A stretch of 64,000 bases of DNA from a virus (IMGVR_UViG_3300045988_025287:1-64000); one strand, 5' to 3'. Shown: positions 192-40,425, numbered from the stretch's first letter. Notes: generated from the sequence alone by a model not told the origin. Numbers and translations are program-made.

Positions 192-2753
192 TTAAAACCA
201 GTTTTCTTCAGATTCTATAGAATCCAATTGTTCATAATCCTCATCATTTAACTCTAATGTAGCTGGAGCAGCTGGCAATGCCGGTTCACCATAGAAGGTA
301 ATTCGAGTCCCGACACTCGCATAGGAAATGCCCAACCCAGCGTAAGAAAGCAAAGAGAACAAACCCGCAAGAGACCCATAGTCCGAGCGACCGCCGATTA
401 GAAGAGTTCTAGGTGTAGCTGTAGCACTAGTCTAGTGATAATCACAATAATAAGTTGTAGCACTAGCTCCATTTCCTACTACAGTTGGGAATAGATCTGC
501 CTAGTTATTATTAACGAGTTTTTTTGCATATTGACTAGTAATTGTACTTTCTTTAAAGTCTTGTAATTCATAACCTGCTGCAATTAATTGCTCTGCAGTA
601 GGATTGGTTCCTCCTTCAAATGTACCAAACTTAGTATAATCTTTGCAGATGTATACACTATTATCAGTACCAGCAACTACTACATCAATTACATTCTTCC
701 ACACATGACCAAATGGATTCTCAATACCACGGTATCTAGGAACATTAACTACCTTAGTACCAGTAGACGTACCCTCTGCATTAGTATTAGTATGTGTATA
801 TTCGATTATACCAGTACCGTTACCTAATGAATTAGTAGTACCGCAAGGTACAAATGAATAAGTAGTAGCTCCATTTACAGTTACAGTTCCTGAAGTTGCT
901 CCATCACCCAAACCACCTTGATGATAACCTTCTGCAGTTAAATTAGCATTAAATGCTTTCTGGCTATTCAATGTAGCATATTCTACTACGAATAACCAAG
1001 TAAGGTCTCTGTGAGCATCATAAGTATAGATATTCCAGTTATTAGTTCTATTATTGTTTCTAGCCATAGTTTGTAATTCCGTTCTTGTTTTGCTTACTAG
1101 AGGAGCAGCATTACGAACTTGAGTTCTTAATAAATTATTATGACTTGAACTATCTAGATTTACACTTCCCTCATATGCACCAATATATTTCTTTTCTACT
1201 TTAGTATAACCAGGAAGATTGTATTCACTCATACGGATTTCAACTGTATTATCTGGGGTAGCTATAAGTAATCTATAATGTTCTGGAATTTCTACCATAA
1301 TTTCAGGAGCCATACCTTTACTGTCATCAGTTATAGTAACGCCATCTTCCCACTTATTCCAGTCATCTGCTTTTAAATACCTCTTAGTATTGTCATCATT
1401 ATTAATAGTACAACCTCTCATCTTACTCTGGATAGGAAGTGTTCTATGCATCTCCATATTACCAGTACGTACACCATCAGGACTAGAACTATTAGCTAAG
1501 TCGAACTTAACGCCATACCACAGTTCATTCTCGTTTCTACTGAGCTTACCAATCTCTTCATCAAGAGTAACAGCGGCACTTATAGCACTAGGACTATCTG
1601 CTAAGTAATTAGTACTTGATAAGTCAGGCATTTCATTAGCTTCAGTTAAACCTACTTTATCATTTACTTTAAGTATAGTACTTCTAAGCTCTGTAATATC
1701 TTGATTTAAAGCTGTCTCTAAACTGTCAATATTGCCTTGAAGTTCTGTATCCTTAGCTTTGAGTTCTTTCACTGCATTCTCTCTTGCAACTTTTTCATCA
1801 TTAATTGCATCAGGAAGAGTTTCATTAATAGCTATTTTCTCAGCACCGGTCATTAAACCAGCAACAGTATTAGTAGCAGGAGTAATAGTAATATTAGATA
1901 AAGTAGACTCTATATACTTACCACCGCTCTTTTCTACTCCAGTAAGACTAATAGTGATATTATTAACATCAGTCTAGTCTAATTGGAATGTACTCAGCAA
2001 GTTATCAGGCATAGAGTTAACTACATTCTCCATAGCTTTACCCTTACCACCATCATAAGCAGTACCAGTAATATCACCAATAATAATGGCATTAGAATCG
2101 ATGTGTACCCATTGTGAACCGGACCATCTAAACTGATAACTTACTTCACCAGGAGTTACATTGACATATATTTTATCTCTTTCACCTACTATAGGAGTTT
2201 CGTGTTCAGCATCTGCATATAACTGTATATTCTAAAGTACTCCAGTAGGAGATACAGTATAAGTAGCATATGCATCCATTACATCATCAACATATGAAGG
2301 CAATTGACTAGCAGGTACTTTACCATTACCATCAAGTTCAGCAAGACCGTTAGGTTGACCCTTTAATGCTTTGAAGTCCTATAAGTCTTCATTCACATCA
2401 TCAATCTTAGTATCTAGTCTATCTACTTGAGCTTTTACAGCAGCATCACCTTTATTAATAGCATCTACTATACTAGTACCTTTAAAGTAGTTATTACTAC
2501 TATTATCAGGTAAAGATATAACATCACTATTCTTATCATAGTTCAAACCAACAGATTGTACAATCTCTTTAATATGAGTCCATTGGTCTACATTAGCATC
2601 TCTGTTTAACGGTATCCACTTCTTAAGATCAGGACTATATGACTTAATAACATTACCAGTACTGTCTGTTGCTAAGTCAATCCAGTAAGAAACCTCTTTA
2701 GGATTTGGAGCATACTTAGATGCTATGAAATTAGGATTTTCTTGTTTAACCAT
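192..2753 (-). CDS. Tail fibre / receptor-binding protein (853 aa with 5 TAG read as sense) with a C-terminal lectin-like variable-region motif
   Basis: Track ORFs 2379..2753 and 501..1853 are in one frame. Walking every codon between and after them meets only TAG (2379, 2232, 1974, 501, 432) until TAA at 192. Fibre motif LAELDGNGKVPASQLPSYVDDV. C-end GGRSDYGSLAGLFSLLSYAGLGISYASVGTR. Confidence 0.75.
306..368 (-). repeat. 63-nt variable-region-like segment (copy A) in the 3' end of the fibre gene
   Basis: Reverse complement GCGGGTTTGTTCTCTTTGCTTTCTTACGCTGGGTTGGGCATTTCCTATGCGAGTGTCGGGACT matches 45188..45250 at 53/63 positions. All 10 mismatches fall in 6 codons. Confidence 0.8.
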
Positions 2754-2851
2754 ATTTGCAAATATTTAATAATTAAATAATCTCCTGTTCTGGAGTATTG
2801 TATTCTTTCTATCTCGTATATTCATCATTGAAATATACAATATTGTTTTCA

Positions 2852-3931
2852 TTATGTTATTGGATTTAATGCTACAACTTGACCAGCTTCAGTCTTATCA
2901 AAGTAATTAACTACAGCAAATTCCTCATCTGCTGCCTAACCGTCTCTACTGCTTACATAACTCCTAATAAACCGCTGACCTCTCTTTTCACTATTACCCG
3001 CTACATATCCATATCTGAATGCAGTACTTATACTATCGTTGTATATAGTGCCATTCTCATTCATAGCGATTACTTTAATCTATCCTTCCTCAGTCATAGT
3101 ATCAGTATTCAGACATCTAACAGATCCTATTATTATATCTCCGTCTACATTAGTCTAATCATTCCATGTCTTATACTATTTACCATTAAATGTAACATAA
3201 CCATTAACGGAAGTACTTAAAGTACCTTTATGTGTAAAGTCTCTCTATATCGTTAAATTGGGCATACCTTCTACGCTATCATCTACAGGATTAATTTTAT
3301 ACCATCTATCAACGTATTTAACAGCTTCTCCAACCCATATTTTATTAGGCATACCTTCTTCAGACACCCAACCATCTTTATCAGCGAATACAAATGATTG
3401 ACCTGTTACTCCCATATCACTACCCTTCATTTGATATGCTTTTACTATAACTCCTCCTTTATAAGCAGTACATTCAACAGTCACAATACCGTCATTTTTA
3501 TTTCCAAACCAGTTTCCTCTAAGCTATACAATTAACTATTCTGGCATAGTTAAACTAGGATCATTAGTATATACATCTTGTATGGATTTAATGTCTACCA
3601 TTACACACTCTGCTCCAGATTGAGTGTTATCGCCTCCCCAGTATAAAAACGGTTGAGTTCTATTTTCAGACGAACCCCAACTCCATCCTACTATTTCACT
3701 AGGGATACTAGGAGCGTTAGTGATGTTAGTACCGGTATCAAAATCTCTACCGTTAGAATCAGTCCATATGAATCTCAACTATATACTATTGAAATCATAG
3801 AAGTAAGCTACATCATCCCTAGTAGGCCATATATGATTTACTCCATCAAATACATCAGATATATTAGTATTGCCTACAGTTCTCTTTTGTAGGGGAACTG
3901 CTCGTCCCCCTGCTATACCTAACTCTAACAT
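2852..3931 (-). CDS. Virion/tail-associated protein, 359 aa, 8 in-frame TAG
   Basis: ATG overlaps the upstream TAA (TAATG at 3929-3933). Track ORFs 3536..3778 and 3245..3484 are in frame. Codon walk 3245->2852 finds only TAG, with TAA at 2852. No motif recognised; the call rests on its position among fibre genes. Confidence 0.6.
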
Positions 3932-5043
3932 TACTCACTCTCCTCATCAATAATATTATAAGTCATACCAGCTACTTTAGTAAGCTGATTATATTCAGCT
4001 TCAGTACCAGTCCATATAGGTAATGATATCTTACCATTATTAGCACTAGGTAACGCTAAAACAACGCCAGTACCTTTGTTCATTGCCTGTTGTACTGGAT
4101 CTAATACAGATATCTTATTCTCACTAATAAGTTTATTTATTAGCTAAGTGATATACTCTTCATCAAGTAATTCACCAACATTACCAAGATTATTCTCAAT
4201 ATTAGTAATCTTATTATTGATACTAGTTATACTCTGTTCAATATCATCTATACTAGATTCTAGATTAGTAATTCTATTATTAACCGTAGTTATCTTACTA
4301 TCTAAGTTATTTATCTTATTAGTAAGTTCTGATATACTTTGGTTAACTTCATTCTTGAAATCCCCTATTGAAGATTCTATAGTACCATCTACATAAGTCT
4401 TAAGTTCATTCTTAGCCTTAGTAATCTCACTATTTATATAGCTTCTTAAATCACTAATTTGCTGATCAATCTTACTATCTAACTCTTGAATATTCTGAGT
4501 TAATTCAGTAATCTTTTGTTGGATAGAACTTAAATCTCCACCTATTACTTCAGTTATATCTTGACGTATCTCTTCAATACTAGAATTGATATTAGTAATA
4601 TCTTGATTTATATCATCAATGTTATTATTGATATCTGTAATATCCTACTTGACATTATTAATATCACCTTTAATATTATTAATCTCATTTCTAATATTAC
4701 TAATCTGAGTAGTTAACTCTTCTACTTTCTGATTAACGTACTGCCACAGTTTATTAACTTCCTCTTTCAGTTCATCTTTAAATTCAGCTAATTCATTTCT
4801 GATTTCAGTTATAGAATCATTAATAAACTGTTCTATCTAATCAAGAGCATTATTAATATAATCAATGATAGCATCTACTTGTTTATCATTCAGATCAAGC
4901 ATCTCCCATGTATTAGTATCATTACGATAATATCTAATACAACCACCATAGTAGTTAGAAGTAACGTCAATCCAATAATCTACTTCTAGAGGATTAGGCT
5001 GCGTATCTGATGCTCTAAATCTAACTATCTCTCTCTGTAACAT
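3931..5043 (-). CDS. Coiled-coil fibre protein, 370 aa, 3 in-frame TAG
   Basis: N-terminus RASDTQPNPLEVDYWIDV is paralogous to KYAPNPKEVSYWIDL of gene 192..2753. Long I/L/N/D/E-rich heptad-like region. Codon walk 4837->3931 meets only TAG (4837, 4645, 4144), with TAA at 3931. Confidence 0.7.
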
Positions 5044-5046
5044 ATG

Positions 5047-39760: not shown

Positions 39761-39761
39761 A

Positions 39762-39980
39762 TTAGTTTAAAATTTCTATGGATATTATTTTTACTTGACT
39801 CATGTACACATGTCCTTCGTATTCTTGTAGTCCTTGTTGTACCATATAGTACTGATCGTCTACTTTTACTATTTTAGACCATCCATCATCTGCAGGACCT
39901 ATATACGTAGATCTATTATACATTTCTGCAGATTTATCAAATGGAATAGTATTACCTATTATTTCGTATTCTATATTCAT
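39762..39980 (-). CDS. Hypothetical protein, 72 aa
   Basis: Track ORF. Confidence 0.5.
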   Translation of the reverse strand: MNIEYEIIGNTIPFDKSAEMYNRSTYIGPADDGWSKIVKVDDQYYMVQQGLQEYEGHVYMSQVKIISIEILN

Positions 39981-39981
39981 A

Positions 39982-40425
39982 CTATTTCTTTTTAGTAGTT
40001 TTTCTTATATATGTAATAAATCTTATATGTGGGACTCCTAGTTTAGATAGCTTCTTATATGTAACATAAACTGAAGATGTACAGTTTAACAAGTTATATG
40101 AATACTTAAACATATTAACCATGCATACTGTTATTTGTTTATTTTCTGATAGTCTAGTAATAGATAAGTGACGCTGTTTAAATCTAAACATGAAGTGGTA
40201 AGTACTATGAATTATATTTTCTACTTGTTTTGTATTAGTATTATATACCCAGTAGTGAACTCCATTCCAGTTATATTGACTAGCTATTAATATATACGTA
40301 ACACCTTTAGTACGCACTTTTAATACTAAAAACTTAGTATTATCAATCTGTATTTCTTGTTGCCTATTTAGATTATCTATCATAGGCTCAACATGTTCTA
40401 TATAATAATCTATGCTATGTTTCAT
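39982..40425 (-). CDS. Hypothetical protein, 147 aa (first gene of the minus block)
   Basis: Track ORF. Confidence 0.5.
   Translation of the reverse strand: MKHSIDYYIEHVEPMIDNLNRQQEIQIDNTKFLVLKVRTKGVTYILIASQYNWNGVHYWVYNTNTKQVENIIHSTYHFMFRFKQRHLSITRLSENKQITVCMVNMFKYSYNLLNCTSSVYVTYKKLSKLGVPHIRFITYIRKTTKKK

Follow-up and report, generated by a model that had tools for sequence, protein, structure and literature searches.

Late genes with TAG read as glutamine and a candidate suppressor tRNA gene split by a group I intron in a Suoliviridae crAss-like phage

Introduction

The 64,000-nt stretch of viral DNA analyzed here (IMGVR_UViG_3300045988_025287:1-64000, hereafter the window) is ~64 kb of the roughly 100-kb genome of a Suoliviridae (Delta-group) crAss-like gut phage. 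Our analysis makes it very probable that this phage uses two code regimes, in which TAG stands for glutamine (Gln) in the late genes and is decoded there by a tRNA with the anticodon CUA whose gene is split by an intron. The recoding of TAG to Gln in late genes is in itself already known, and its finding in the window is a correct rediscovery, since the literature describes the same for the Delta group and a near-identical RefSeq genome is annotated in this way. The intron-split suppressor tRNA is apparently an undescribed part of this system.

Results

Assignment of the window to the Suoliviridae

Nucleotide similarity, synteny and the signature genes for TerL, portal and major capsid protein (MCP) place the window within the Crassvirales/Suoliviridae. 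In megablast comparisons, the genome cr53_1 (NC_055889.1; Crassvirales; Suoliviridae; Loutivirinae; Blohavirus americanus) showed ~95% nucleotide identity to the window over the shared parts and the same gene order, and other Suoliviridae reached 75-85% identity. In the RefSeq record of cr53_1, the genes for TerL, portal, fibres and other late proteins are already annotated full-length through TAG, and a 'tRNA-Gln', to which ARAGORN assigns the anticodon CTA, is listed between TerL and the upstream small genes. An earlier note on this DNA, made from the sequence alone, had tied the recoding to crAss-like and Lak phages, a connection borne out by the identity to cr53_1 and by the recoding published for the Delta/Suoliviridae group (PMC7886860).

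TAG is a sense codon on the minus strand

Minus-strand genes were modeled as TAG-open frames, which yielded 39 tightly packed gene models with a total of 12,521 codons. These models contain 135 in-frame TAGs and not a single internal TAA or TGA, in line with the earlier note, which had counted about 130 sense TAGs, none terminating, and had met only TAG between neighboring frames. Coverage of the minus strand of positions 1-40,500 by stop-to-stop open reading frames (ORFs) of at least 100 codons rose from 59.0% under table 11 to 92.6% with TAG as sense, whereas the TGA and TAA controls barely moved it (60.4% with TGA and 64.4% with TAA as sense). No such gain was seen for the plus-strand block (40.5-64 kb), for which the coverage went from 62.7% to 63.9% with TAG as sense. 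The coding-density comparison proposed in the note as a check of its claim hence came out in its favor, and ORFs are restored by TAG only and on the minus strand only.

Along the genes the TAGs are evenly spread (Kolmogorov-Smirnov p = 0.07) and just three of the 135 lie within 12 codons of the terminator; they are therefore not leaky natural stops. They lie inside conserved genes, and reading them as sense restores full-length homologues. Their use along the strand is uneven, since 123 fall into the late structural, lysis and packaging block (192..32492; 24 gene models) and 12 into the sub-block upstream of it (33460..40425), where they are confined to four of 16 genes; by arithmetic from these counts, minus-block usage would put ~14 TAGs into the 12 TAG-free genes of this sub-block. 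The view that TAG is used as sense across the whole minus block was accordingly right as to the reading of the codon and too broad as to its distribution. Similarly, genes had been described as ending in TAA or, in four cases, TGA; the TGA ends are real, but they number five, the gene at 35089..35526 having been missed.

The examples of reconstructed genes named in the note were all confirmed. With TAG as sense, TerL is restored through the FPDFWDYDYYYF motif, and its LAGLIDADG intein (366 aa; 30555..31652, minus strand) holds eight of the 18 TerL TAGs, so that this mobile element is recoded too. The portal, previously put at 824 aa, measures 837 aa when taken from its first ATG and aligns with standard-code portals as a single high-scoring segment pair (HSP; 64.5% identity in the case of cr10_1). 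In the MCP gene, the TAG of the N-terminal AASQ-TAG-NPYQ has a TAG at the same position in cr53_1; the gene is split by an intron (21796..20950, minus strand; 38.5 bits for Rfam Intron_gpI, under the gathering threshold of 50) with an HNH homing endonuclease ORF (21031..21675) inside, and its second exon begins at 20949, which corrects the start given before. The Peptidase_S74 domain of the tail fibre and the GIY-YIG domain spanning TAGs in a homing endonuclease were found where the note had placed them, as was the avoidance of TAG in the conserved late gene 15914..16888 and in capsid exon 2, both of which contain none.

Glutamine is the residue that best accounts for TAG

Window proteins with X at each TAG were compared by tblastn with the DNA of nine Crassvirales, the subject codon was read at every TAG position, and candidate amino acids were scored with empirical substitution tables derived from the same alignments. 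The DNA of the relatives was used in place of protein database matches, because table-15 gene calls would make the inference circular. Over the nine relatives combined, the log-likelihood (lnL) was -671.8 for Gln, the residue that the note had named by inference, and -936.7 for the runner-up, Glu. Gln was the maximum-likelihood identity in eight of the nine; for the ninth, the distant crAss001, Cys, His and Gln lay within 0.5 lnL units of each other.

Of 100 aligned positions in cr53_1, 72 are likewise TAG and 16 are CAA or CAG. The Boorivirinae cr50_1, cr10_1 and cr1_1, which use the standard code, have no TAG and carry Gln codons at 17-18 of 38-39 positions. In these three genomes the probability of finding Gln opposite a window TAG, P(Q|TAG), was 0.45-0.47, compared to 0.44-0.48 opposite a true Gln codon, P(Q|Q). 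Moreover, CAA exceeded CAG at aligned TAG positions, and the signal therefore does not merely reflect the one-step mutational neighborhood of TAG and CAG. As judged by this comparison with relatives, TAG is Gln in the late genes.

The plus-strand early block is compatible with the standard code

The 30 plus-strand table-11 ORFs of at least 60 aa contain 201 CAA or CAG codons and no internal TAG, compared to ~84 expected at minus-block usage. TAG is the first stop in seven of them (46440, 47182, 47889, 50078, 53929, 56662 and 63155). In all but the one at 56662, an in-frame TAA or TGA follows 1-12 codons later (mean ~5), so that either reading gives nearly the same protein. From the background frequency of TAA and TGA, a back-up stop would be expected at a distance of ~20 codons, and by our own arithmetic the chance that all six lie within 12 codons is ~0.01, which suggests that these near back-up stops have been selected to limit read-through after a code switch. 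The frame at 56038..57237 has a tandem TAG-TAG in its middle and an in-frame ATG two codons further on, is 98.5% conserved in cr53_1 and is annotated there as one coding sequence; under the standard code it could be made as two proteins, and with an active suppressor as a single fusion.

Taken together, recoding is concentrated in the late structural and lysis genes, a bias that has been discussed for recoded phages (Borges et al., bioRxiv 10.1101/2021.08.26.457843), and the early genes are compatible with the standard code. An early block that is code-neutral and a late block that needs suppression fit the published model of a temporal switch. The earlier note had mentioned neither the standard-code compatibility of the plus-strand genes nor the suppressor tRNA described below.

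A candidate CUA suppressor tRNA gene split within its anticodon

Neither default ARAGORN nor an Rfam scan at gathering thresholds found a suppressor tRNA in the window, and the default finders returned only Leu(taa), Arg(tct) and an odd 'His(atg)' tRNA. Standard tRNA finders miss the suppressor because its gene is split by an intron. When run with -i, ARAGORN did report a minus-strand gene at 32920..33220, which it labeled Ser(cga) and whose boundaries it misplaced by 1 nt. Under the splice rules of group I introns (5' exon ending in a U that pairs with G in the P1 helix, intron ending in G, 5-bp anticodon stem and 7-nt loop), the only high-scoring solution is CUCU^AAC (^, splice junction), which corresponds to the anticodon CUA. 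The 228-nt intron has no ORF and breaks the anticodon between positions 35 and 36 (CU^A), and the ligated exons fold as a canonical cloverleaf that is called as tRNA(cta). The phage-encoded CUA suppressor of code 15 phages is hence predicted for the window only after removal of the putative group I intron.

On the late strand, the gene is placed between the 16 mostly TAG-free genes, which precede it, and TerL, which follows it directly. Its position is that of an intronless tRNA(CTA) in cr53_1, cr4_1 and cr6_1, and the window sequence at this locus differs from theirs. A tRNA(CTA) is present in the recoded relatives cr53_1, cr4_1, cr6_1 and cr130_1, and none was found within the stretches examined of the standard-code relatives. 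Identity elements for glutaminyl-tRNA synthetase (GlnRS) in E. coli are U1 with a weak 1:72 pair, U35, and acceptor and discriminator bases. The split tRNA has U1, a U•U mismatch at 1:72 and U35, together with A instead of G as discriminator and U-A at 3:70; the rules compared are those of E. coli and may not be those of Bacteroidales.

A second tRNA of the window, at 58881..58952 (plus strand), was considered as a suppressor and rejected: an alternative fold places CUA in a 5-nt loop, and no canonical 7-nt CUA loop can be drawn. This tRNA, just upstream of the DNA polymerase gene, is read by ARAGORN as His(atg) with two mismatches in the anticodon stem, whereas RNAfold favors a 6-bp stem with a 3-nt loop; it begins with U1, as do Gln-like suppressors, and is conserved in cr53_1, where it is annotated as tRNA-His.

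Covariation supports a group I-like fold of the intron

The Rfam model Intron_gpI (RF00028) matched the tRNA intron with 21.3 bits and put the U•G wobble exactly at CUCU^. An alignment of nine distinct homologous introns from tRNA(CUA) genes was analyzed for covariation and supported a fold with the helices P2, P5, P6 and P9 and the P3/P7 pseudoknot, in which 96.9% of the cells are paired and 22 of 48 pairs show compensatory double changes. The observed pairing and covariation were reached by none of 500 shuffles, and controls with slid helices were 29-44% paired. P8, where the alignment is inconsistent, was kept outside the formal count.

As in group I introns, P1 has a U•G wobble at the 5' splice site, and the last nucleotide of the intron is G. 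The guide sequence covaries with the exon, being GGAG opposite CUCU^ in CUA tRNAs and GAG(U) opposite (A)CUU^ in UAA, UAU and UUU tRNAs, and all introns end in GU(A/G)GUAnG^. A P10 pairing is not evident in the CUA-type introns. Automatic choice of the splice site, whether from the P1 score alone or under a relaxed rule for the stem, produced spurious anticodons for several non-CUA loci and was discarded, and all anticodon counts given here derive from the strict stem rule. At the level of sequence, these results establish the tRNA exons, the group I-like fold of the intron and the splice sites.

The split tRNA and its intron recur in phages and Bacteroidales

The tRNA cassette is ~99% conserved in three other ~100-kb genomes, namely cr115_1 (Birpovirus hiberniae, NC_055898.1) and two ~101-kb IMG/VR contigs. 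The copy in cr115_1, a phage of another subfamily, is 99.4% identical and sits at the corresponding locus, whereas the flanking genes are only ~85% identical; in the RefSeq record it falls within an unannotated 636-nt gap. The complete cr115_1 genome (99,848 bp) is TAG-recoded, with seven in-frame TAGs in TerL and 12 in the portal gene, and the split tRNA is the only CUA-capable tRNA that it contains. Further away, Lak megaphage sequences show 76.8% identity to the window intron, and in Lak-B1 (MK250020.1, ~412,030-412,350) a homologous intron splits a tRNA at CUCU^AAA whose exons resemble the intronless suppressor of cr53_1.

A 19-nt core motif of the intron was found in 39 IMG/VR contigs, nearly all copies being inside split tRNAs, at least 14 of which are tRNA(CUA). 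The flanks of these loci gain ORF coverage with TAG as sense (for example from 0.10 to 0.81 and from 0.44 to 0.87). The same motif occurs in 84 genome contigs, mostly metagenome-assembled genomes of Bacteroidales, and in the Bacteroidales contigs 53 of 58 resolved introns lie in tRNA-Leu(UAA) at U^AA and one in a CUA tRNA. The simplest reading is that a tRNA-Leu intron of the host lineage moved into phage suppressor tRNAs, with its guide sequence retargeted.

In cr4_1 and cr6_1 a 'homing endonuclease' gene directly adjoins the intronless tRNA(CTA) (L003 12558-13538 and L004 21513-22442, respectively, both minus strand). The window and cr115_1 have an ORF-less intron in the tRNA instead, a pattern that recalls the interplay of introns and free-standing endonucleases.

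Further features of the window

The coordinates of the features discussed are collected in Table 1.

Table 1. Positions of coding blocks, genes and RNA elements in the window
Feature	Coordinates	Strand	Remarks
Late structural, lysis and packaging block, from TerL to tail and fibre genes	192..32492	-	123 TAGs, standing for Gln; synteny with cr53_1
Upstream sub-block of 16 small genes, including ThyA, a chaperonin-like gene and regulators	33460..40425	-	Mostly TAG-free
TAG-bearing genes of the upstream sub-block (TAGs)	33977..34291 (2), 37330..37587 (4), 38188..38907 (5), 39952..40425 (1)	-	
Early and replication block, compatible with the standard code	41005..63948	+	No internal TAG
Frame with tandem TAG-TAG (56662-56667) and in-frame ATG (56674)	56038..57237	+	416-codon open frame
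Predicted tRNA(CUA) amber-suppressor gene, split by a group I intron	32920..33220	-	Exon 1 33220..33186, intron 33185..32958, exon 2 32957..32920
TerL, 1059 aa, 18 TAGs	29313..32492	-	LAGLIDADG intein at aa 281-646
Portal, 837 aa from first ATG, 16 TAGs	26797..29310	-	96.5% identity to cr53_1 portal
Major capsid gene, split by a group I intron	19824..22140	-	Exon 1 22140..21797 (1 TAG), exon 2 20949..19824 (0 TAG)
Tail fibre, 1210 aa, 18 TAGs	7838..11470	-	C-terminal Peptidase_S74 chaperone domain
GIY-YIG homing endonuclease gene, 5 in-frame TAGs	38188..38907	-	Insertion relative to cr53_1
Conserved late gene, 0 TAG among 10 Gln-type codons	15914..16888	-	
Conserved non-coding element, ~240 nt, between tRNA cassette and TerL	32668..32905	-	Ends in a terminator-like GC hairpin and T run
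RAGATH/Hatchet match regions	42625-42775, 42870-43092, 44016-44112, 45887-46022, 47448-47608	+	Rfam

Four minus-strand homing endonuclease genes (19125-19751, 21031-21675, 26076-26789 and 38188-38907) are absent from the corresponding places in cr53_1. Two are of the GIY-YIG and two of the HNH/NUMOD type, and their TAG content ranges from zero to five, the most TAG-rich one, 38188..38907, lying within the otherwise TAG-poor upstream sub-block. Directly upstream of TerL, a 50-codon minus-strand ORF (32505-32656), also absent there in cr53_1, ends in TAG-TAA.

Conservation of the non-coding element that separates the tRNA cassette from TerL extends to cr53_1 and cr115_1 and does not depend on which tRNA cassette precedes it; the fold of the element has a z-score of -2.4, and it weakly matches the Bacteroides small RNA BTnc060 (E = 0.11). 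In the early plus-strand intergenic regions, Rfam matches above the gathering score were obtained for RAGATH-6, RAGATH-7, RAGATH-9 and two Hatchet ribozymes, amounting to a dense cluster of self-cleaving and associated RNAs in the early region of a crAss-like phage. A further plus-strand match, to the Rfam family 'tmRNA_permuted' (48826-49007; 56.1 bits, gathering score 47), has counterparts in cr115_1, cr50_1 and cr10_1, in which permuted transfer-messenger RNAs (tmRNAs) with tag peptides are annotated or called by ARAGORN. A phage tmRNA is of note in phages that manipulate the reading of stop codons.

Discussion

A proposed route from the split gene to late-gene decoding

Our results suggest a model in which the standard code of the host suffices to read the early and replication genes of the plus strand, TAG there terminating or sitting within the last few codons, and in which TAG in the late packaging, capsid, tail, fibre and lysis genes would be read as Gln by the phage-encoded tRNA(CUA). 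The primary transcript of the tRNA gene would self-splice and then be processed as a tRNA; as the intron interrupts the anticodon at CU^A, a functional suppressor should arise only after self-splicing. The suppressor would presumably be charged with Gln by the host GlnRS and would compete with host release factor 1 (RF1) at UAG, so that full-length late proteins may form only once the tRNA accumulates. Given the place of the gene on the late strand, just before TerL, this would probably happen only once that region is transcribed. TAG stops of the host and of the early phage genes would from then on be read through, with the near back-up stops acting as a buffer. In such a scheme the code would switch over the course of infection, and the intron may play a regulatory role.

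What else the intron may do is more speculative. It could add a regulatory delay, or it could be a selfish element that shields the tRNA gene from the GIY-YIG homing endonucleases flanking the intronless alleles in cr4_1 and cr6_1. The latter scenario resembles the idea of 'collaborative homing'. We lean slightly, and with considerable reserve, towards a broader view in which the switch from the standard code to TAG as Gln depends on a self-splicing intron in the anticodon of the only suppressor, and in which the introns of Bacteroidales tRNA-Leu(UAA) have repeatedly colonized phage tRNA(CUA); besides crAss-like phages and Lak megaphages, the colonized phages would include others represented by contigs of 75-450 kb.

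Alternative explanations

Several points weigh against decoding by the split tRNA. Its intron scores 21.3 bits in Rfam, short of the gathering threshold of 50. In viral contigs, an exact search found no intronless allele of the window's own tRNA that would show the ligation junction, and a shorter pattern of the anticodon arm retrieved unrelated tRNAs only. The Gln identity of the tRNA is drawn solely from codon comparisons and from U1 with the weak 1:72 pair, and neither release factor 2 (RF2) nor GlnRS appears in the cr53_1 annotation outside record positions 32,223-59,999. TAGs, though few, do occur upstream of the tRNA gene, so that the tRNA does not precede the recoded genes in every case. 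Another suppressor could be encoded in the ~37 kb of the genome beyond the window, an objection tempered by the whole genome of cr115_1, which has no further CUA tRNA. Finally, all evidence for this genome is at the level of DNA sequence.

Some of these points also speak for the alternative that survives best, namely that the recoding is real and the split tRNA is a dead or parasitized site, suppression being provided by the host or by a tRNA outside the window. Splicing is predicted only, the Rfam score is sub-threshold, a considerable part of the genome is unseen, and host-encoded suppressors have been considered for genomes without one of their own (Yutin et al., PMC7886860). Against a dead site, both exons are intact and form a canonical cloverleaf, the cassette is conserved at ~99% in three other genomes, one of them from another subfamily, and the intron core and P1 show compensatory covariation across ~10 distinct tRNA(CUA) hosts. 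In addition, the complete cr115_1 genome offers no other CUA tRNA, and the early genes stop at TAG, which argues that the host reads TAG as a stop. We consider this alternative unlikely.

Still less probable, and in our estimate very much so, is that TAG is sense but encodes another residue such as Glu, Lys, Tyr, Trp, Ser, Leu or pyrrolysine. In the more distant relatives, Glu and Lys too are often found opposite TAG, the likelihood for crAss001 does not discriminate, and any CTA tRNA is labeled 'Pyl' by ARAGORN. On the other hand, Gln is ahead of Glu by 265 lnL units in the combined comparison, and its frequency at TAG equals that at true Gln positions in the three standard-code relatives. 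The commonest replacement, CAA, is two changes away from TAG and hence no artefact of mutational neighborhood, proteomics of related phages gave Gln (PMC9523058), and the long variable arm that Ser, Leu and Tyr tRNAs have is missing from the spliced tRNA.

The last of these features also argues against the ARAGORN -i output being right in that the split gene encodes a tRNA-Ser(CGA) with an intron and not a suppressor, a reading to which we give almost no weight. ARAGORN does not apply group I splice rules, and its boundaries put C instead of U at the 5' site and U instead of G at the 3' end; shifting both by 1 nt satisfies both rules and gives CUA. The 5' site is moreover fixed by the covariation of P1, and the same locus in cr53_1 holds an intronless tRNA(CTA).

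That the TAGs are real stops, in a decayed or pseudogenized phage or between independent small proteins, accords with the short ORFs into which the block breaks under table 11 and is refuted by frames that are interrupted by TAG alone throughout the minus-strand models, by fragments that are collinear, in frame and joined in single HSPs to full-length standard-code portal, TerL and MCP, by the 72 of 100 aligned positions still TAG in cr53_1, and by the restriction of the pattern to one strand.

Implications

Gene calling under table 11 misses about one third of the minus block and breaks up every large virion gene, which bears on the annotation of such genomes. An intron-aware search recovers tRNA(CUA) genes that standard pipelines and RefSeq have missed, as in cr115_1. 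For the genome studied here, the intron-split suppressor would complete the decoding mechanism. More generally, split tRNAs offer a testable answer to the published puzzle of recoded phages without a detectable suppressor and, if the proposal is correct, would explain why many recoded genomes seem to have none. The ribozyme step could then time or gate the translation of late genes, and the splicing of the intron could bear on the timing of the code switch.

Comparison with known systems

For the Delta group of crAss-like phages, a recoding of TAG to Gln that mainly concerns late genes has been described, along with MCP genes that contain group I introns and TerL proteins that contain inteins (Yutin et al. 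2021, PMC7886860), and in proteomics two other crAss-like phages yielded peptides with Gln at TAG (Peters et al. 2022, PMC9523058). The window resembles these code 15 phages in belonging to the Delta/Suoliviridae group, in the codon, the amino acid and the CUA suppressor tRNA, in recoding mainly structural and lysis genes while keeping early genes in the standard code, and in its MCP intron and TerL intein; it differs in the group I intron that splits its suppressor tRNA gene. The difference is also seen in the comparison with cr53_1, which shares most of the aligned TAG positions but has an intronless tRNA(CTA) with another body at the locus of the split tRNA. Besides, cr53_1 is without the MCP intron and its HNH endonuclease, the GIY-YIG genes 19125..19751 and 38188..38907 and the HNH gene 26076..26789, and its homologue of the window gene 23584..25539 is shorter by ~276 aa.

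Some recoded genomes have no detectable suppressor, and the papers concerned note only that fact (PMC7886860, bioRxiv 10.1101/2021.08.26.457843, PMC9523058). A description of intron-split phage suppressors was not found in the searchable literature, the coverage of which is limited, so that this is absence of evidence only. Lak megaphages of Prevotella are TAG-recoded and have conserved 'enigmatic' tRNA introns (Devoto et al. 2019, PMC6784885), which that study neither classified as group I nor linked to a CUA suppressor. They share with the window the recoding, intron-bearing tRNAs and, in Lak-B1, a homologous intron, and differ in their ~540-kb genomes and in encoding RF2.

Maturation of a suppressor tRNA that depends on a ribozyme is known from theta ribozymes, which resemble the hepatitis delta virus (HDV) ribozyme, adjoin suppressor tRNAs of recoded gut phages and cleave at the 3' end of the tRNA (Kienbeck et al. 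2024, PMC10879173). The window would add a second kind, in which a group I intron is spliced from the anticodon instead of the 3' end being cleaved; no HDV-like or theta ribozyme was found beside the window tRNA at E <= 1. The tRNA-Leu(UAA) introns of bacteria and cyanobacteria are likewise short, ORF-less group I introns in the anticodon loop that are spliced after U. Compared with these, the window intron resides in a suppressor tRNA, is inserted 1 nt further 3' (CU^A versus U^AA) and carries a retargeted guide sequence (GGAG versus GAGU).

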